A DNA stretch of 64,000 nucleotides from Rhodospirillaceae bacterium. Lineage in GTDB: Bacteria > Pseudomonadota > Alphaproteobacteria > UBA7985. Positions 36,043-54,076 of this stretch are shown one piece after another (position 1 is the stretch's first letter; the number at the start of each line of letters is the position of its first letter). The stretch is taken from assembly GCA_038141425.1 (NCBI GenBank), contig JAYQIC010000011.1:319681-383680 (forward strand), read 5' to 3'. A program made the translations under genes and the position numbers. Below the pieces are notes generated by a model, which worked only from the letters and a program-made list of their open reading frames with translations, made no database searches and was not told the DNA's origin.

Positions 36043-36306
36043 TCAGGGCGTGCGGGGGCGCCGATACCGACCCAGATAGAGCAGACCAGCACCGATCAGC
36101 CCGGCAAAGATCCACGGCGGCAGAGAACCTAGTCCGCCTGGCATCCAGTCGCCCGAGCCGGGCCCGGCCAGCAGGGTCGACAGATCACGCAGAGTGAGCA
36201 GCCGTGTCCACGACCCGCCAAAGGCGGCAAACATGCCCTCGATGACCAGCTGCACGACGGCGATGGCCATGAAAACACTGCCCCAAATCCAGATGATGAG
36301 TCGCAT
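36043..36306 (-). CDS. Small membrane protein (hypothetical)
   Basis: ATG 36306 follows GGAG. Two predicted TM helices (MRLIIWIWGSVFMAIAVVQL..., WIFAGLIGAGLLYL). Confidence 0.5.
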   Translation of the reverse strand: MRLIIWIWGSVFMAIAVVQLVIEGMFAAFGGSWTRLLTLRDLSTLLAGPGSGDWMPGGLGSLPPWIFAGLIGAGLLYLGRYRRPRTP

Positions 36307-36414
36307 AGTTGCTCCGTTATGGCCCACGATAAGAGCTATACACCAATCACAGGGGTAATACAGGTCAGCAGGCATTGCGCGGGGCGGGTTTATTGTCTAA
36401 CCAAACGCTCACGC

Positions 36415-36504
36415 GGTGAGGTGGCCGAGTGGCTTAAGGCGCTCGCCTGGAACGCGGGTATAGGGGAAACTCTATCGTGGGTTCGAATCCCACCCTCACC
36501 GCCA
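36415..36504 (+). tRNA. tRNA-Ser (anticodon GGA)
   Basis: Acceptor stem GGTGAGG/CCTCACC, anticodon loop CTGGAAC, long variable arm, T-arm GTGGG-TTCGAAT-CCCAC, encoded CCA. Confidence 0.95.
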
Positions 36505-36766
36505 TTCTTTCTGAATTTTCCTGAATTTCTGGTCTGATGGGCTGATCGGGGTGATTTCAGCGGTCATCAGTGACGCGGAGCGCGCGACACCCAACCCAGC
36601 CTGAAGCGCTGCAATGAAGGTGCACAAGTCCCCATCTGTCTTGACCGGGAAAGGCTGGTCTGGTCGTCTGCCATGGGCTTTAGTCGTTTGGTCCTGAAAT
36701 CCTCGAAATCCTCGGAACCTCTGAACCTTCGAAACCTCGGAACCCTTTATCACTGGGCAGGACCAA

Positions 36767-36967
36767 ATGACCCAAGCCATTGTCGAACTCGAAATCCGTC
36801 TCGAGCATCAGGAAGCCGCGCTCAACGACCTCAGCGACATCGTTGCGAAGCAGCAGCGCGTGATCGATCGCCTGCTCGCCGAAGTCCGTCACCTCAGCTC
36901 GGTGCAGGCGCAGGACGCCGCGACCCCGGGCAGCGCAGCGGATGAAGCCCCGCCGCCGCACTATTGA
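36767..36967 (+). CDS. slyX: SlyX-family protein
   Basis: 66 aa, coiled-coil. LEIRLEHQEAALNDLSDIVAKQQRVIDRL is typical of SlyX. Confidence 0.85.
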   Translation: MTQAIVELEIRLEHQEAALNDLSDIVAKQQRVIDRLLAEVRHLSSVQAQDAATPGSAADEAPPPHY

Positions 36968-36988
36968 ACCATCGGTTGGCGCGCTTAA

Positions 36989-37004
36989 TCAGACATCTGT
37001 CTGA
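36989..37004. promoter_or_regulatory. Perfect 16-bp palindrome (candidate operator)
   Basis: TCAGACA-TC-TGTCTGA, located 135 nt upstream of the first ORF of the nitrile-hydratase-family cluster. Confidence 0.35.
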
Positions 37005-37139
37005 ACCTGAGACGATATTCAATTCGTTAAAGCTAAAACATTAAGTTAGTCTGAAGCGGTTCATTGCCGCGCCCTGTCCTGTGTCCGCTGTCGGCAAAGG
37101 TGAACGACGCAAGCGACATCTCAGAACAGGAGAAGCACA

Positions 37140-37472
37140 ATGGCTGCCCTCGCAATGGTAATGCCGATTCTGCCCGGCAAAAAAGACAAGTGGCTGAAGA
37201 TGATCGAAGAGATCAACAGCCCCGCCGCCAAACCCGATTTCGATGCTGTCCGGGAAAATGCCGGCCTGCACGAGCGTACATTCCTGCAAGAAACGCCCAT
37301 GGGAGATTTTGTGATCCTCACTTACGACGGCGATGACCCCATCGCTGGCTTCGGTCAGATCATGCAGACGATGGACGAAGATTTTGCCGCCTTCGCGCTC
37401 GACGTCCATGGTCTTGACGCTTCGGCGCCGCCGCCGCCCATGCCGCGGCTGGTGTACGACAGCCGTTCGTAG
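37140..37472 (+). CDS. Small hypothetical protein preceding the NHase-family genes
   Basis: 110-aa ORF preceded by GGAGAAG. No family recognised with confidence. Confidence 0.6.
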   Translation: MAALAMVMPILPGKKDKWLKMIEEINSPAAKPDFDAVRENAGLHERTFLQETPMGDFVILTYDGDDPIAGFGQIMQTMDEDFAAFALDVHGLDASAPPPPMPRLVYDSRS

Positions 37473-37621
37473 GCCCGTCACCCCCTAGGCCCGTCACCGT
37501 CACCAGAGGGTAGCGCAGGACCGCTGAGGGTAAGGGCCCTCAGTCGGTCGTTGCTCCCGCCCCGCGCCCTGCTATTCTCCGACGACAAATCCCCTGGCGG
37601 AGAGAGCAGGAGTGCGGGCAA

Positions 37622-37945
37622 ATGACTGAGACCAAGGCCTATCACGACGTTGGCGGCGATGACTTCGGCCCGGTGCCGATGATCGATGGCGAGTATCAGC
37701 TGTGGGAGAAGCGGGTCGATGCCATGATGCGGCTGCTGTCCTCGCCCGGTGTCGCGCTGATGCGGGTCGACGAGCTGCGTCGCGGGATCGAGACGCTGGG
37801 CGAGGCCGCCTACAACGCCGAGCCCTACTACGGCAAGTGGGCGCGGTCGCTGGCCAAGATCATGGTCGAGAAGGGCGTGCTGACCCAGGACGAGCTCGAC
37901 GCAAGGATCGCCGCCCTGCGCGCCGAGCGGGGATTGCCCGAATGA
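37622..37945 (+). CDS. Nitrile hydratase family, beta-subunit N-terminal half as a separate ORF
   Basis: YHDVGGDDFGPVP...WEKRVDAMMRLL...ELRRGIETLG...YYGKWARSLAKIMVEKGVLT matches the N-terminal half of NHase beta. The stop overlaps the next start (ATGA). Confidence 0.8.
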   Translation: MTETKAYHDVGGDDFGPVPMIDGEYQLWEKRVDAMMRLLSSPGVALMRVDELRRGIETLGEAAYNAEPYYGKWARSLAKIMVEKGVLTQDELDARIAALRAERGLPE

Positions 37946-38247
37946 CGGCGGCGCAGTTTGACGTCGGCGACCGGGTGACGGTCCGTGATCTGGCCGCCGA
38001 GACCGGGCTGAGCGGGCATATGCGCGCGCCGGTCTACTGCCGTGGGCACAGCGGTGAGGTCGAGCGGCTGTGCGGTGTGTTCGGCAACCCGGAAACGCTG
38101 GCCTATGGCGGTGACGGCAGCCCGCCCCAGCCGCTGTACCGGGTCCGCTTCCGTCAGGCAGAGGTCTGGCCCGACTACGTCGGCCCCGCCGCCGACACCA
38201 TCGAAATTGAGATTTACCAGCACTGGCTGAAGGCAGCGACGCCATGA
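37942..38247 (+). CDS. Nitrile hydratase family, beta-subunit C-terminal half as a separate ORF
   Basis: FDVGDRVTVRD...HMRAPVYCRGHSGEVERLCGVFGNPE...PQPLYRVRFRQAEVW...IEIEIYQHWL matches the C-terminal SH3-like half of NHase beta. ATGA overlaps on both sides. Confidence 0.8.
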   Translation: MTAAQFDVGDRVTVRDLAAETGLSGHMRAPVYCRGHSGEVERLCGVFGNPETLAYGGDGSPPQPLYRVRFRQAEVWPDYVGPAADTIEIEIYQHWLKAATP

Positions 38248-38912
38248 CCATGACCTCCGCAGGACAGGATCATTCCCACGATCACGATCACGATCACGAC
38301 CACGACCATGATCACGACCATGATCACAGCGCGATCGAGGCCGAGGATACATCGAATTCGGACACCGCACTGCTGGCAGACGCGCTCCGGCTGGTGCTGA
38401 TCGAGAAGGGTATTTTCACGGCGGCTGACGTACAGGCGCAGCTCGACCTGATGGAAACCCGCTCGGACCGCAACGGGGCGCGGTTGGTCGCCCGCGCGTG
38501 GCAGGATCCGGCGTTCAAGGCGGCGCTGCTCGAAGACGGGGCCAAGGCGGCGCTGGATGCTGGTTTCGATATGAAGGGCACGCCGCTGGTGGTGCTGGAG
38601 AACACCGACGCGGTGCACAACGTCGTCGTCTGCACCCTCTGTTCCTGCTACCCCGTGACCCTGCTGGGCCCATCGCCGGAGTGGTACAAGTCCAAGGCCT
38701 ACCGCGGCCGTGTGGTGCGGGATCCGCGCTCGGTGCTCGACGAATTCGGGACGTCGATCGGTGCTGACCGTGAAGTGCGGGTGCACGATTCCACCGCCGA
38801 CATGCGCTATATGATCCTGCCGAAGCGGCCGGCGGGCACGGATGATCTGTCCGAAGCCGCGCTGGCGGATATCGTCACCCGCAACGGCCTGATCGGCGTT
38901 GCCGAAGTCTGA
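38244..38912 (+). CDS. Nitrile hydratase family alpha subunit, cobalt-type metal site, with N-terminal (His-Asp) repeat
   Basis: VVVCTLCSCYP (CTLCSC at 38631-38648) is the Co-type claw motif. The N-terminal DHSHDHDHDHDHDHDHDHDHS is at 38268-38327. Confidence 0.85.
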   Translation: MTMTSAGQDHSHDHDHDHDHDHDHDHDHSAIEAEDTSNSDTALLADALRLVLIEKGIFTAADVQAQLDLMETRSDRNGARLVARAWQDPAFKAALLEDGAKAALDAGFDMKGTPLVVLENTDAVHNVVVCTLCSCYPVTLLGPSPEWYKSKAYRGRVVRDPRSVLDEFGTSIGADREVRVHDSTADMRYMILPKRPAGTDDLSEAALADIVTRNGLIGVAEV

Positions 38913-38955
38913 GACTGCGGTATCGCGGGGTGTGCGGGCGGGGGCGACCTGCGCC

Positions 38956-39441
38956 CTAGCCGTCGAGCAGGACCTCGCCCTCGACTTCAATCGCGAAACC
39001 CATGGGCAGGGCCGCGACGCCGATGGCCGAGCGCGCGTGCCGGCCCACGTCCGGCCCGAAGGCTTCGAGGATCAGATCGCTGAAGCCGTTGACCACAAGA
39101 TGCTGTTCAGTGAACTGCGGGGTCGAGGCCACCATGCCAAAGACCCGCACCCAGCCGCTGACCCGCGACAGCTCTCCGATTTCGGCCTTGAGGTTGGCCA
39201 GCGCAGACAGGGCGATGTCGCGCGCGGCGTCGTAGCCTTCCTGCGTGGTCATATCGGCGCCGAGCGTGGCGAAGGGGCCATTGATCGCGCCTTCGGCGCT
39301 CTGCCGTGGGTGGCCGGAAATCAGGGCGCGGTTGCCCCGGACGTTGATGAAGGAAAACGGCAGCTTCATCCCCGGTGCGAGCTTGATGGGGTCGGGCAGT
39401 TGCAGGCCCAGGGCGGCGATACGGTCTTCAGGCGTGGTCAT
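38956..39441 (-). CDS. RidA/YjgF-family protein
   Basis: 161 aa with a YjgF-like C-terminal pattern (ARSAIGVAALPMGFAIEVEGEV). Confidence 0.75.
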   Translation of the reverse strand: MTTPEDRIAALGLQLPDPIKLAPGMKLPFSFINVRGNRALISGHPRQSAEGAINGPFATLGADMTTQEGYDAARDIALSALANLKAEIGELSRVSGWVRVFGMVASTPQFTEQHLVVNGFSDLILEAFGPDVGRHARSAIGVAALPMGFAIEVEGEVLLDG

Positions 39442-39557
39442 GGTGGCGATACCCCAATGCTAAAGGTGGCGGGACGAGTTGCACCGAGGCTAACCGCGCC
39501 ACCGGGTTCGTCAAGCATCCTGAGGCTGCGCCTGACGCCAGCGTTCAGGCGGCCTGC

Positions 39558-39968
39558 TCAGGCGAAGCGCTCGCCACGGACGAAGCCCACGCGGGTGGTG
39601 GGGAAGTACTGCAGCGGGACGCCGAGATCGTTGATTTTGTCGATCACCGCCTGCGAGACGGTGCCGTAGATTTCGATGGTGAAACTCTCGGCAAGGTCGG
39701 CATGCCTGCCCACGTAGTCGACGACCGGCGGGTTATCGGCGTGGAACAGGAAATCGTCGCTCCGCCGGTATACTTCCGACCAGACCAGCTTGTGCGGGTC
39801 GGTGCTGTCCTGATCGAAGTTGTGGAACAACATGCCCGGCTCGCTGGCCTCGACTTCGGCGTCGACACCGGCCGCGAGATCGAGGTAGGCGTCGAGCTTG
39901 CCGGGGCTGACCGTGATGCGGGCGAGCAGGATAAAGGGGTTGGTGCCGTCAGAGACTGTTGCTGACAT
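39558..39968 (-). CDS. ABM (antibiotic-biosynthesis-monooxygenase-like) domain protein
   Basis: 136 aa. ILLARITVSPGKLDAYL...MLFHNF...WSEVYRRSDDFLFH is typical of a ferredoxin-like ABM fold. Confidence 0.6.
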   Translation of the reverse strand: MSATVSDGTNPFILLARITVSPGKLDAYLDLAAGVDAEVEASEPGMLFHNFDQDSTDPHKLVWSEVYRRSDDFLFHADNPPVVDYVGRHADLAESFTIEIYGTVSQAVIDKINDLGVPLQYFPTTRVGFVRGERFA

Positions 39969-40004
39969 AGTTCATTTCCTCGGTGTGGTTCGTTAGTCGG
40001 GGGG

Positions 40005-41192
40005 TCAGGCTGGCTGGCTCGGGTCATTGCCGCCGCCACTGCTTTCGTTCACTGAACCTCCGGTATTCAGCTTGCTCGACATCATCAGCGCGGCGGCGAT
40101 GATGGCCCAGGCAATGCCGAGGATGATCATGCAGGCGGTGATCGATACGGACTTTGCGATGAAGCCGATGATCGGCGGGCCGAACAGAAAGCCGGCGAAG
40201 GCGAGCAGGTTGACGTCGTTGACCGCAGCGATCGCGTTATCGGTCTCCTCGCGCGCTGCCACCCCGAACAGCACCGGGATGAAGTTGGCGGTGAAGAAGC
40301 CGAAGAAGCCGAAGCCGACAACGATCAGGTAGGGGTTCCCCAGCACGGCCGTTACCAGAAAGATCACGCATCCGAGGATCATGCCCCAGCCCGCGACCAG
40401 CACTTCGCCGAAGCGGTTGATCAGGGCTTCGCCGTACAGACGGGAGACGATTTCAGCAACGTTGAAGGCCATGATGCCGGTCCCGCCGAGCGCGATCGCC
40501 AGCCCGAGATCCCGGGTCAGCCACAGCGCCGACCAGTCGAGGATGATCGAAATGGTCGCCATCGACAGGGCGGCCAACCCACCAAGGAACAGCACCAGTC
40601 CCGAGGGCAGGCGGAAGCCGGGACTCTCGATCGGGTCAAAGGTGACGGTGCGGAACGGCACGAAAAAGATGAACAGGCCGACGAGGATGGTGAGCACGAA
40701 CAGGCCGCCGAACACGAAGGCCGGGGGCATGGCCAGTGCCTGGCTGATCATGCCGATGACCAGTCCCGACAGCGAGCCCGCGGAGAATGAGGCCCAGTGC
40801 AGCGGCTGCAGGCGACGCCCGGAGCGGTTCTCGGCTTGCGTAATCACCGCCAGCGTCGAAGGCTGAATCACCCCGAAGGCGAGGCTGAGCGGGGCGGCGA
40901 GTACGATGAACAGCGTGGTATTCGGCGCGAACACCCAGATGATCAGCGCAAAGGCGAAGACCACGACCGCCAGCCCGGTAATCCTCGGCCCGAAGCGGGG
41001 CAGCAGCACGTGACTGACGAACAGCATGGAGGCGAGGCTGAAGATCCCGAACATCAGCAGGGCAAAGCCGAACATGTCGTACTCGATGCCGAGCAGGTCG
41101 ACCTTCCACGGGATGTAGGACAACCAGCATCCATAGCTGACTAGACAGATGATGACCGCGAGGCGGCTTCCCCAAATCATACGATCGACCAC
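40005..41192 (-). CDS. MFS transporter
   Basis: About 12 TM helices. I chose GTG 41192, which follows GGGAGA (alternative ATG 41180). The upstream part of ORF 40005..41843 is tandem-repeat and non-coding read-through. Confidence 0.75.
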   Translation of the reverse strand: MVDRMIWGSRLAVIICLVSYGCWLSYIPWKVDLLGIEYDMFGFALLMFGIFSLASMLFVSHVLLPRFGPRITGLAVVVFAFALIIWVFAPNTTLFIVLAAPLSLAFGVIQPSTLAVITQAENRSGRRLQPLHWASFSAGSLSGLVIGMISQALAMPPAFVFGGLFVLTILVGLFIFFVPFRTVTFDPIESPGFRLPSGLVLFLGGLAALSMATISIILDWSALWLTRDLGLAIALGGTGIMAFNVAEIVSRLYGEALINRFGEVLVAGWGMILGCVIFLVTAVLGNPYLIVVGFGFFGFFTANFIPVLFGVAAREETDNAIAAVNDVNLLAFAGFLFGPPIIGFIAKSVSITACMIILGIAWAIIAAALMMSSKLNTGGSVNESSGGGNDPSQPA

Positions 41193-41425
41193 GGGTTTTC
41201 TCCCTGTTTGCCTTTTATTCCGGGCCGTCGCCCGGTGTCCGAACCAAACACACTGTGGGCGAAATGCTAAGGCGAAAACCATGGAGATGAGACGGGTGAC
41301 GATGGATTGATAGAACCGGGTCTTTGCGAGGCAGGTGTCTCGAGGTTCCGGGCTGTTTTTGCCCAATCGGCAGGCAGACCCGTGTCGCTGCCCGGCCTCT
41401 GGCTGCGCCCGGATGCTGTCGCGTC

Positions 41426-41512
41426 GGCCGGGGTTCCGGCTGTCGAGCGGGCCGGGGTTCCGGCTGTCGTGCCGGCCGGGGTTCCGGCTGTCATTCCGGC
41501 CGTGGCACGGGG
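41426..41512. repeat. 3.5 copies of a 24-bp tandem repeat
   Basis: GGCCGGGGTTCCGGCTGTC + 5 variable nt, at 41426, 41450 and 41474, with a partial copy at 41498. Lies in the divergent MFS/GFA intergenic region. Confidence 0.9.
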
Positions 41513-41585
41513 CGGCTTTTATTCCGCTTTTACTTTTCCGAGGATCAAAGGCAGACTCAGGGCCTGATTTACGGGAGAAAACGCC

Positions 41586-42053
41586 ATGAGCGAACGACAG
41601 GGTGGCTGCTCGTGCAAGGCCACGCGCTACAGGTTGACCGAGGAGCCGATGTTTACCCACGTTTGTCACTGCAGCATCTGCAAGCGGCACACGGGCACGG
41701 CCTTTGTCACCCACATCTTTATTGAGCGCGCGCATCTCGAGGTGACCGAGGGTCGGGTGGAGGCCTACGCCGGGCAGACCGGCAGTGGCGCTGAGCACTG
41801 GGTCTACCGCTGTCCCGATTGCCTGTCGGCGCTCTACAGCCACTACGCTGGCAACGACCAGATTGCGCTGGTCAAGGGCGGGACGCTCGACGACCCGGCG
41901 TCATTGCCGCCCGGCGCGCACCTGTGGGTTGAGAGCAAGGTACCGTGGATCGAGATTCCGGATGGCGTGCCGGCCTTTGACCAGAACTATGTTGCCGCCG
42001 AGGTCTGGCCCGCTGCCTCCATGGAGCGGCGGCGCAAGGCAGGCTGGGGCTGA
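41586..42053 (+). CDS. GFA (glutathione-dependent formaldehyde-activating)/CENP-V family protein
   Basis: GGCSCKATRY...HVCHCSICKRHTG...YRCPDCLSAL are the zinc-Cys motifs of the GFA family. Confidence 0.85.
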   Translation: MSERQGGCSCKATRYRLTEEPMFTHVCHCSICKRHTGTAFVTHIFIERAHLEVTEGRVEAYAGQTGSGAEHWVYRCPDCLSALYSHYAGNDQIALVKGGTLDDPASLPPGAHLWVESKVPWIEIPDGVPAFDQNYVAAEVWPAASMERRRKAGWG

Positions 42054-42162: not shown

Positions 42163-43640
42163 ATGGATCAACTTGCCCTCGCCGAAGCTTTCTTTTCCGC
42201 CCGGCGCACCAAAGACACCTTGCCGCTGATCGCCCTGCCCGCCGACCCGGATCGCGCATGGTTGCGCGGTCTGCCGGAGCGGCACGCGCGCTGGCTCCGC
42301 AGTCAGGGTGCTGATCTTGACGGAGCCGGGCTGGTGCTTCCGTTCCCGGCGAGGATGGCAGCCTCGAAGCGGTGTATTTCTCCCCGACCAGTCACGCCGG
42401 AGACAGCTGGCGGCTTGCGCATCTGCCCGCCAAGCTGCCGCCGGGTCGTTACGCGCTCGAGGATGAGGCGGGTCTGAGCCGAGGGGCGGCGACACAGGCC
42501 TGTTTCGGATGGGCGCTGAGCCAGTGCCCCGACCGGCGGTATAAATCTGACGGCGCTGATCAAGGCGGCCGCGGCAGGTCGCCGGGCAACGGCGCCGCAG
42601 GCGGAGGCGCCGGCCGTGCTGGTCTGGCCCAAGGCAGCCGATCGGGGGAGGTCTCGGCCTGGCTCGAAGGGGTGGTCATGGCCCGACGGCTGGTCAACAC
42701 ACCTGCTGAAGACATGGGGCCGGCGGCGCTGGCCGAGGCGGCGCAGGCGCTGGCGGAACGGCATGGGGGCCGGTTCGAGCAGGTGGTCGGCGATGCCATG
42801 CTCGCGGAAGGTTTTCCGGCGGCCCACGCGGTTGGCCGGGGGCGACACCGGCACGGGCGCCGCGGATTCTGACCCTGCGGTTCAGGGGTTCGCGATCGCG
42901 GCGCCGACGGTGGCGCTGGTGGGAAAGGGCGTGGTGTTTGACACGGGTGGATTGGATATCAAGCCGCGTTCGTCCATGCGGAATATGAAGAAGGATATGG
43001 GCGGCGCGGCCGTGGCGCTGGGGCTGGCGAGGACGCTGCTGGCGCTGGGGGTGGACCTCAACCTGCTGGTGGTGATCGGCGCGGTGGAGAATGCGGTGTC
43101 AGCGGGGTCTTTCCGCCCGGGAGACGTGCTGCAGACGCGCAAGGGGCTGACGGTGGAGGTGGGGACACGGACGCGGAAGGGACGGCTGGTGCTCGCCGAC
43201 TGCCTGACCTATGCGGGCGAGCAGGATCCGGACCTGATCCTCGATTTTGCCACCCTGACCGGGTCGGCGCGGGTGGCACTGGGGCCGGACCTGCCGCCGG
43301 TGATGGCGCGGGACAATGGTCTGTCGACGGCTATGGCGCAGGCCGGGCACGAGGCCGGAGACCCGCTTTGGCCCATGCCGCTGTACCTGCCCTACGCCCA
43401 GCACCTGCGCAGCGCCATCGCGGATCTTTGCAACATCACCGAGGGTTTTGGCTTTGCGGGATCGATTACGGCAGGGCTGTTTCTGGAGAAATTCGTGCCG
43501 AAGGGAACGGCTTGGGCGCACTTTGACCTGTTTTGCTGGAACCCTTCAAGCCGCCCAGGCCGACCGGCGGGGGAGAGGCGCACGCGCTGCGGGCGATGGC
43601 TGGTTTTCTCAGGACGTGGAAGCCCGACCGGCGGTCGTAG
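42163..43640 (+). CDS. M17 leucyl-aminopeptidase-family protein, heavily frame-disrupted as sequenced
   Basis: Family motifs are spread over three frames: ARRLVNTPAEDMGP, HAVGRG, APRILTLRF, VALVGKGVVFDTGGLDIKP, MKKDMGGAA, GRLVLAD, ATLTGSARVALG, GRPAGGEAHALRAMAGFL. At least six slips (~42348, ~42553, ~42645, ~42850, ~42885, ~43575) plus a compensating pair at 43165/43180. Confidence 0.75.
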
Positions 43641-43654
43641 AGCGTTTCAATTGA

Positions 43655-44110
43655 TTGCGCGACGCTTGGCCCCGCCGCGCGAAGCGCGGTCGGGGACAAG
43701 TCGGCGCAACTTCCTTCCGCTGACACACAACACGCTCAAGGGCGCAGCCGTTTTGAGCGCAAAGGTAAAGTTGCGTGCTCGATTTGACGCCGCTTCGCGG
43801 CTTACAAATCTCCCCCGCGCAGTTAAACAGACAGGCCGCACTTCGCCCGGCCTGACGTCTTTCCGCATTTTCTCTGAAAATGTGCGTGGGAGGGCCGAAG
43901 GCCGCGAAGCGGCCAAGGCCCGAGCGCGCCACCTCTCCATTCACACTCAAGACGCGGAGTTTATCCTGAGCCTGCAGAAGGACTTCAAGTATTGTTGGCG
44001 TGAGGAGCACCAACGCGCTCAAAGCCGAAGGCGTGTTGAGCGCAAAGCAAAGAATTGCGCGGCGCTTGACCCCGCCGCGCGAAGCGCGGTCGGGGGCAAG
44101 TCGGCGCAAC
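43655..44110. repeat. Hairpin-repeat mosaic cluster E (H2r-H4r-H1r-H3r-H5r-H4r-H2r)
   Basis: H2 at 43655-43710 and 44055-44110, H1 at 43771-43822, H5 at 43884-43971, all in reverse orientation. Lies between convergent gene ends. Confidence 0.9.
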
Positions 44111-44114
44111 CCGT

Positions 44115-45045
44115 TCAGTATCCGTGATCCATGCTCACCAGATTGCTCAGCGGCAGCCCGCGGCGGAGTTCGTCGATCGCATCCGCGACGGCAAAAATCG
44201 CCGTCTCCGGCGCTGTGACCGCCGCAACGTGCGGGGTGATGAACACCCGCGGGTGGTCCCACAGCGGATGCTCTGTCGGCAGAGGCTCTTCGCGGAACAC
44301 GTCCAGCACAGCCACCTCGACCCGGCCTCGGTCCAGCGCCGCCAGCAGGTCTTCCTCGACCATATGACCGCCCCGACCCGCATTGATCACCGCGGCGCCC
44401 TGCGGCAGCCGGTTGAAGGTACCCCGGCCGAGGATCCCTTCAGTGTCGGGGGTCAAAGGCAGCAGGCAAATCAGCACTTCCGAGCGGTTGAGGAACTTCT
44501 CCAGCCCGTCGATGCCGTGGAAGGTCTCCACACCATCCAGCTGCTTGGGCGAGCGCGACCAGCCCATGACGTTGTAGCCCATGCCGATCAGCGCGCTGGC
44601 GCAGGCCTGTCCGAGCACCCCGATGCCCATGATCCCCACCTTTTGGTCGGTCGCCAGCCGCACCTCCTCTTCTTGCCAGACCCGGTTGGCCTGATGCGCG
44701 AAGGTCCGGTGCATCCGGCGGGTACAGAGCAGGGTCGCCATGACGACGTACTCGATCATGCCCTGGGTCAGGCCCCGGGTCGACCATCCGCACCAGCGGC
44801 ACGTCGCGCGGATAGCTCGGGTCGCGCAGGATGTGATCCACCCCCGCCCCGGTGGAGATCACCAGCCGCAGATTTTCCAGGGAGGCGAGCAGCCCCTGCG
44901 GCGGCTCCCAGACCAGCGCAACGTCGACCTCTGCGGGATCACCGACAAAGGGAAAGGTCACCACCTCCAGCCCGGGGACGCGGTTGTGCAAAGCGTTCTT
45001 CCAGCGCTCGATCAGATGGCGTTCGTTCTTGAGCAGCAGCTTCAT
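44115..45045 (-). CDS. D-2-hydroxyacid dehydrogenase (glyoxylate/hydroxypyruvate reductase A-like), frame-disrupted as sequenced
   Basis: N-terminus is in ORF 44440..45045 up to VPLVRMVDPG. The remainder is in ORF 44115..44759 (GIMGIGVLG Rossmann motif, INAGRGGH, ITPHVAA). The slip is at C-run 44773-44776. Confidence 0.8.
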
Positions 45046-53897: not shown

Positions 53898-53990
53898 TGA
53901 AGGTTGGGGCGGACGTGCCTCTCGCCAACCCGGTCAGGTCCGGAAGGAAGCAGCCGTAACGAATTCGGTGCGGGTCGTTCCAATCTTCCC
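53898..53990 (+). ncRNA. ffs: Signal recognition particle RNA (4.5S)
   Basis: Contains the invariant domain IV core GGTCAGGTCCGGAAGGAAGCAGCC. The flanks (GAAGGTTGGGGCGG / CGTTCCAATCTTC) pair into the closing helix. Conserved position upstream of dnaX. Confidence 0.9.
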
Positions 53991-54076
53991 TTGAGATTTC
54001 TTCTGCCGCCCTGTGTAGCGCAATTCCACCGGAAGGGCAGGGCGCGGACACGGCGAGAACGTGGATAAAGTGGCAG

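Follow-up and report, generated by a model that had tools for sequence, protein, structure and literature searches.

A probable three-subunit cobalt-type nitrile hydratase operon with a split beta subunit in an alphaproteobacterial genome

Introduction

Reviews take ScNHase of Streptomyces canus CGMCC 13662 as the type example of three-subunit nitrile hydratases (NHases). It is encoded by anhD-anhE-anhA, with AnhD and AnhE corresponding to the N- and C-terminal parts of the beta subunit; the subunits (10.4, 11.35 and 21.3 kDa) form an AnhD2E2A2 assembly that is an active cobalt NHase, the genome holds no activator gene, cobalt enters the apo-alpha subunit under reducing conditions, and the complex AnhD2A acts as a subunit-swapping chaperone (Guo et al. 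2019, 2020). Here we describe a comparable locus, three open reading frames (ORFs) for beta-N, beta-C and alpha at positions 37622 to 38912 of a 64,000-nucleotide stretch of contig JAYQIC010000011.1 from a Rhodospirillaceae bacterium (assembly GCA_038141425.1); this whole 64-kb stretch is called the window below. The window locus resembles ScNHase in its order (beta-N, beta-C, alpha), its cobalt-type metal site, its lack of an activator gene and its subunit sizes (12.0, 11.1 and 24.2 kDa), whereas ScNHase is an actinobacterial soil enzyme that has been tested on neonicotinoids. A Streptomyces plasmid locus that we used as a stand-in for ScNHase (L044) is 52% identical to the window in alpha, 41% in beta-N and 47% in beta-C, has Arg rather than Val after the CSCYP of alpha, and carries aquaporin and HoxN cobalt transporter genes, both missing from the window. 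This closest precedent was overlooked in the first-pass annotation of the window, an unaided reading of the sequence that had named two others, thiocyanate hydrolase (SCNase) and toyocamycin NHase.

Toyocamycin NHase of Streptomyces rimosus, ToyJKL, is an (alpha-beta-gamma)2 enzyme (21.2, 10 and 11.4 kDa) whose alpha subunit, ToyJ, matures alone. Compared by description, it shares three subunits and activator-free maturation with the window, but its genes lie inside a deazapurine antibiotic cluster and that for alpha is probably first; a J-K-L gene order would make the beta-N, beta-C, alpha arrangement that the first-pass annotation gave for it doubtful. SCNase of Thiobacillus thioparus (PDB 2DD4), reportedly encoded in the order scnB-scnA-scnC, has its beta split at the same domain boundary, a His-Asp repeat at the N-terminus of the alpha equivalent, and the CTLCSC motif. 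The cobalt NHase of Pseudomonas putida NRRL-18668 (3QXE) has the same metal site and a His-rich alpha N-terminus and is the best structure match for alpha and beta-C, but it has a single beta of 219 amino acids (aa), the order alpha-beta-P14K, an obligatory activator and Trp after CSCYP. Eukaryotic NHases of the Monosiga brevicollis type likewise have a His-rich tract just before the alpha domain, with no activator reported, but are one beta-alpha fusion polypeptide rather than three proteins; fusion proteins with the alpha motif do occur among the best relatives of our beta-C. The reviews also describe a plasmid NHase of Microvirga flocculans in the order beta1-alpha-beta2.

A translationally coupled operon for two beta halves and alpha

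The three ORFs lie on the forward strand. Beta-N (37622..37945; 107 aa, 12.0 kDa) is the equivalent of AnhD and SCNase beta, beta-C (37942..38247; 101 aa, 11.1 kDa, SH3-like) that of AnhE and SCNase alpha, and alpha (38244..38912; 222 aa, 24.2 kDa) that of AnhA and SCNase gamma. Stop and start codons overlap as ATGA at both junctions (37942-37945 and 38244-38247), and an AGGAG ribosome-binding site (37608..37612, forward strand), read from the sequence, stands 9 nt before the beta-N ATG. Each polypeptide has its own ORF and its own Pfam domain, here and in orthologues: NHase_beta_N (8e-19, 68 bits, model positions 3-100 of 115), NHase_beta_C (3e-21, 76 bits) and NHase_alpha (1.8e-75, 253 bits), so that the trio is real, far beyond chance. 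The coordinates and Pfam matches thus uphold the first-pass description of three ORFs coupled through ATGA overlaps. A consensus scan of 36300-39700 found no sigma-70-like promoter or terminator and was uninformative in this respect; Rfam found no riboswitch or similar regulatory RNA upstream of the operon, its matches in the window being a tRNA-Ser and a signal recognition particle (SRP) RNA only.

Among solved structures, alpha matches the P. putida cobalt NHase best (3qxe_A, 5e-60, 54% identity), followed by SCNase gamma (49% identity). Beta-N is closest to SCNase beta (2dd4_B, 1.3e-10), with NHase beta chains next, and beta-C to the P. putida beta (3qxe_B, residues 129-218, 8.6e-12); by the extents of these matches, the two genes part where the two domains of beta normally meet, as they do in SCNase. 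The metal motif of alpha (Cys130-Thr-Leu-Cys133-Ser134-Cys135, followed by Tyr-Pro-Val138) is encoded at 38631..38648 on the forward strand, and the cobalt-type site noticed earlier is indeed there, as VCTLCSC at residues 129-135. When the pocket residues were checked by alignment, the catalytic Arg, Tyr, Trp and His-x-Arg had all been kept: beta-N has Arg53 within DELRRGIE (equivalent to beta-Arg52) and Tyr69/Tyr70 and Trp73 within YYGKW, while beta-C has His26-Met-Arg28 within GHMR (equivalent to beta-Arg157). The window thus has the residues of a split-beta cobalt NHase, namely the two Arg and the Tyr that hold the oxidised cysteines, together with V-C-T-L-C-S-C.

The locus does not behave as a classical two-subunit cobalt-type NHase (NCBIfam TIGR01323, TIGR03888 and TIGR03889). 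Alpha scores 235.2 bits against the NHase alpha equivalog TIGR01323 (cutoff 249.85), and the classical beta equivalog (cutoff 152.2) gives 60 for one beta half and 65.6 for the other; there is no accessory gene, and Val replaces Trp. These NCBIfam scores agree with a position of alpha in between NHase alpha and SCNase gamma. We consider it likely that this is a single operon with translational coupling, whose three products make up a cobalt-type NHase of the ScNHase and toyocamycin NHase kind.

Alternative explanations

The split could be a sequencing or assembly indel, or the decay of an ordinary beta gene into a pseudogene. In favor of this, two genes in the window downstream of the operon, for an M17 peptidase (42372-44127) and a 2-hydroxyacid dehydrogenase (44115-44759), look frame-broken, and L056, a related soil locus, has a beta that is short and fused. 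An identical beta-C has its own ORF on three short contigs that are independent of one another, one of them from a TARA sample, and on long marine contigs (25-437 kb) relatives whose alpha is 77-88% identical have all three ORFs in the same order; the split recurs across independent assemblies (TARA, JGI and others) as well as in curated RefSeq replicons, and no fused beta was present among the orthologues of this locus that were found. The junctions differ by lineage, always leaving two ORFs: 4-nt overlaps in L004, a 2-nt gap and then an overlap in L007, an overlap and then a 2-nt gap in L009, and gaps of up to 13 nt in more distant split-beta members. Such variation is what one would expect of separately maintained genes rather than of a shared frameshift error. 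Because of the frame-broken look of other window genes we also compared substitution rates: the pairwise ratio of nonsynonymous to synonymous rates (dN/dS) against L004, L007 and L009 was 0.06-0.13 per ORF (0.06-0.12 for beta-N and 0.06-0.13 for beta-C), with synonymous sites near saturation, which means strong purifying selection on each of the three. When the full set of 1.84 billion cluster representatives was searched with beta-C by HMMER, 256 matched at E<=1e-10, and in the best 150 of these beta-C stands alone (<=135 aa) in 105, the rest being beta-sized or fused with alpha. The first-pass annotation had judged the split genuine from its overlapping codons; with orthologues, junctions and dN/dS added, the chance of an artefact or decaying gene is negligible.

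The three-gene layout is also that of SCNase, which converts SCN- to COS and NH3, and besides the beta-N match there are an HDHDHD alpha N-terminus shared with SCNase gamma and an Arg-Arg pair in beta-N (DELRRGIE), the counterpart of RRRK in SCNase and of a single Arg in classical NHases. The pair, however, is general to split-beta NHases, including that of Streptomyces L044. Aligned to 2dd4_C, alpha has Val138 in place of gamma-Arg136 and lacks a gamma insertion of about 12 residues, and it scores 192.8 bits against the SCNase gamma model TIGR03887 (cutoff 291.45), below its score against the NHase alpha model. In a neighbor-joining tree of 91 alphas (178 columns, 200 bootstraps), SCNase gamma (2dd4_C) forms a clade of 100% bootstrap with alphas of Nocardia and Mycolicibacterium, from which the window is excluded. 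A Pfam scan of about 30 neighboring ORFs between 18 and 53 kb of the window found no sulfur-oxidation genes, and taken together these results make an SCNase very improbable. The same scan found no deazapurine biosynthesis or salvage genes, which bears on a deazapurine or nucleoside NHase of the ToyJKL type, with toyocamycin or a preQ0-like nitrile as its substrate: the composition of three subunits of similar sizes and the independence from an activator are alike, but toyJKL sits inside the toy cluster, whereas the window operon belongs to a marine alphaproteobacterial clade at a housekeeping-like site next to lepA, with tRNA-Ser, slyX, RidA-like, ABM, MFS, GFA and M17 peptidase genes as neighbors. 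ToyJ is not one of the close relatives that carry a name. We hold such an enzyme to be highly unlikely. A last alternative is that beta-N serves only as activator or chaperone and that the working enzyme is alpha plus beta-C. Classical activators are beta-N homologues, our beta-N has a weak match to the accessory-protein model TIGR03889, AnhD forms the AnhD2A chaperone complex, and three beta-N paralogues in a Dehalococcoidia locus (L014) suggest a division of labor. Yet the NHase_beta_N model is covered almost end to end by beta-N, which retains the catalytic Arg, Tyr and Trp, residues for which an activator has no use; ScNHase purifies as AnhD2E2A2, AnhD serving also as beta subunit, and SCNase crystal structures include the beta-N equivalent as a subunit, so that a role in maturation alone would be quite unexpected.

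Several points nevertheless weigh against the three-subunit cobalt-type NHase that we favor. The TIGR01323 score of alpha falls just under the equivalog cutoff. Val138 occupies a pocket position where every characterised relative has Trp or Arg, and with this replacement the chemistry or the substrate could differ. The alpha of Streptomyces L044, standing in for AnhA, is only 52% identical, and the deep nodes of the alpha tree are poorly resolved. An activator could be encoded elsewhere in the genome, outside the window. Finally, no amidase, aldoxime dehydratase or cobalt transporter gene is among the roughly 30 ORFs scanned, and thus there is no pathway context. The substrate had been said not to be inferable from the sequence, which holds for the scanned neighbors: groEL, lepA, tRNA-Ser, slyX, RidA-like, ABM, MFS, GFA, M17 peptidase, ABC transporter parts and pheA. 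Contexts differ among relatives, with GntR and TRAP transporter genes, AzlCD, SOD or (in Agrobacterium) amidases.

Proposed assembly and maturation

By analogy with the described enzymes, the product would probably be an (alpha, beta-N, beta-C)2 heterohexamer, a dimer of trimers. Alpha would bind Co(III) through Cys130, Cys133, Ser134 and Cys135, with Cys133 oxidised to sulfinate and Cys135 to sulfenate; beta-N and beta-C would jointly rebuild a normal beta subunit, in which beta-N Arg53, Tyr69/70 and Trp73 and beta-C His26 and Arg28 would form the pocket lining and keep the oxidised cysteines in place. Such an enzyme would hydrate a nitrile (R-CN) to the amide (R-CONH2). As in ScNHase, maturation may proceed without a dedicated activator, cobalt entering alpha directly under reducing conditions, and free beta-N would probably act as an alpha-binding, subunit-swapping chaperone in the manner of AnhD. 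These analogies are our grounds for the choice of metal, for oxidised cysteines, for the stoichiometry, for self-chaperoning and for the inferred activity.

With the NHase accessory protein model TIGR03889, none of seven operon and flanking ORFs reached the model, its sole match being a weak one of 30 residues within beta-N (E=0.001), and a phmmer search of all ORFs in the window found none besides the trio that resembles alpha, beta-N or beta-C. The first-pass annotation had noted no P14K- or NhlE-type activator adjacent to the trio; we extend this to the whole window, which holds no dedicated activator gene (P14K, NhlE or NhhG). No accessory gene was seen beside the split loci examined either. 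Activators are visible to this method: in two classical loci of actinobacteria (L036 and L041) it picks up the accessory ORF that lies downstream of alpha.

The alpha N-terminus carries a His-Asp run, encoded by a (CACGAT)n hexanucleotide repeat (38277..38327, forward strand; period 6, 8.5 copies by TRF). We considered this run as a substitute for an activator and rejected the idea, since it occurs in most cobalt-type alphas examined, including activator-dependent classical enzymes; it is also found in the P. putida alpha and in SCNase gamma. The number of His-Asp units differs among near-identical contigs (L002, L003 and P0001), which suggests slippage-driven length variation.

Distribution of split-beta loci

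We searched for relatives of alpha with one genome per species, which returned 33, and mapped beta-N and beta-C matches onto their ORFs. Beta-N, beta-C and alpha followed one another in this way in metagenome-assembled genomes (MAGs) of Alphaproteobacteria (from Lake Baikal, Rhodobacteraceae, Ferrovibrio and Aquabacter), Betaproteobacteria, Rhodocyclaceae and Dehalococcoidia; classical loci in the same scan have a single beta, before or after alpha. When plasmids were searched by tblastn with beta-C, the trio appeared in RefSeq replicons of Streptomyces sp. NBC_01176, Planktothrix agardhii and Agrobacterium rubi, in the last adjoining two amidases. RefSeq labels the beta halves "SH3-like domain-containing protein" or "nitrile hydratase", and such public annotation hides the subfamily. 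The split-beta, activator-free architecture is therefore not new, having been characterised in Streptomyces already, and it is widespread: three-subunit activator-free NHases are a large subfamily rather than a Streptomyces curiosity, and an open-ocean alphaproteobacterial clade is part of it.

Both fission and fusion have happened within the subfamily, as shown by L056 (4001-5202, farmland soil), where a fused 202-aa beta precedes alpha, without an accessory gene and with the signatures DELRRNIE, NPEELAF and CSCYPR. Some loci have other arrangements. On the plasmid of Streptomyces sp. NBC_01176 (L044:5988-8438), genes for an aquaporin, a hypothetical protein and a HoxN/NixA-type nickel/cobalt transporter come after the trio and share its orientation; the HoxN module is a cobalt supply that the marine loci are without. 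In a Dehalococcoidia MAG (L014:3438-5594) beta-C and alpha come after a tandem of three beta-N-like ORFs, and alpha has Ser after CSCYP; the tandem may be a duplication of the chaperone/subunit piece. Genes fusing beta-N to alpha occur at the locus of P0113 (JGI 3300043331), directly after a complete beta-N, beta-C, alpha trio on the same contig, and in a Roseomonas MAG (L029:4542-5618).

A marine clade with Val138

Among the 120 closest alphas the residue after CSCYP is Val in 70 and Arg in 50, never Trp, while Trp stands there in every classical single-beta locus and in both NHase crystal structures used; this is the position of Arg136 in SCNase gamma. Split-beta loci have Val or Arg, with Arg in most of these enzymes, except L013 (Trp) and L014 (Ser). 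In the alpha tree the window falls in a marine clade (100% bootstrap) whose members all have Val and are all split where the context is known, and four further Val-group lineages that we looked up are split as well, without an accessory gene. Support for the classical Trp clade is 51.5%, and the deep nodes relating the Val, Arg and Trp groups stay below 52%. The marine clade is confined to marine Alphaproteobacteria, at the housekeeping-like site beside lepA; of the named genomes, that of a marine Rhodospirillaceae MAG comes nearest (81% alpha identity).

Val138, a 4-residue insertion in beta-C and the conserved site beside lepA in pelagic Rhodospirillales-like Alphaproteobacteria mark this clade. 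It is possible, though on balance we find it doubtful, that these marks denote a functionally distinct activator-free NHase acting on a natural marine nitrile or a related C-N compound. Were this so, it would hint at an unrecognised nitrile pool in the dissolved organic nitrogen of the ocean, and, without an adjacent amidase, the amide might itself be a useful product or pass to an unlinked amidase; the question raised for marine microbiology is which nitriles these bacteria meet. For biocatalysis, the Val138 clade is a natural pocket variant, and activator-independent cobalt NHases are easier to express. Nothing here overturns current understanding, and in the literature we found nothing specific on marine split-beta NHases.

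The Nocardia and Mycolicibacterium alphas that group with T. thioparus SCNase gamma come from five loci (L032, L035, L036, L037 and L041). All five have Arg after the Cys motif (CSCYPRPIL in L036) and a very similar N-terminal segment, the loci have a single-polypeptide beta, and in two of them, L036 and L041, the ORF after alpha is activator-like. These may be SCNase-like enzymes with a fused beta.

Neighboring genes

Upstream of the operon lies an ORF of 110 aa (37140-37472, forward strand), which the first-pass annotation called unrecognised and noted in connection with the lack of an adjacent activator. It indeed has no Pfam or NCBIfam match, but it is no candidate partner, since it occurs away from NHase genes: homologues at 61-64% identity are in loci without them, in the syntenic locus L004 the ORF is on the other side of slyX, and it is absent from the NHase loci L007-L011. 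It is a conserved, real gene all the same (dN of 0.036 against L004). Its confidently predicted structure (pLDDT 93.5) is a dimeric ferredoxin-like alpha+beta fold of the rhamnose mutarotase, ABM or NIPSNAP type, with YiiL rhamnose mutarotase as the best PDB match (TM score 0.66 for the predicted model). Context, the NHase-free homologue loci and the fold together rule it out as an activator, metallochaperone or NHase partner. The family consists of conserved marine hypothetical proteins, one of which has a Pfam PF19673 match; in L053 a homologue lies beside an amidase gene, and L050 has one amid small unknown genes.

Downstream, Pfam identified the convergent genes as YjgF/RidA-like, ABM and MFS, as had been read from the sequence. 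The ABM and MFS genes (39558-41843) are absent from L004, where the RidA gene is directly followed by a GFA gene, and a 24-bp tandem repeat of 3.7 copies (41415-41502) lies between the MFS and GFA genes of the window. Farther on, the M17 aminopeptidase gene appears to be interrupted by a change of frame: it is spread over the ORFs 42372-42872 and 42616-44127, and its Pfam match stops at residue 308 of 503. Its L004 orthologue is a clean 480-aa gene, and the 2-hydroxyacid dehydrogenase ORF (44115-44759) has the NAD-binding domain only; these breaks are likely indel errors or pseudogenes. The tRNA-Ser gene (anticodon GGA; 36415-36504, forward strand) stands between lepA and slyX, and the bacterial small SRP RNA is encoded at 53898-53992 on the forward strand.

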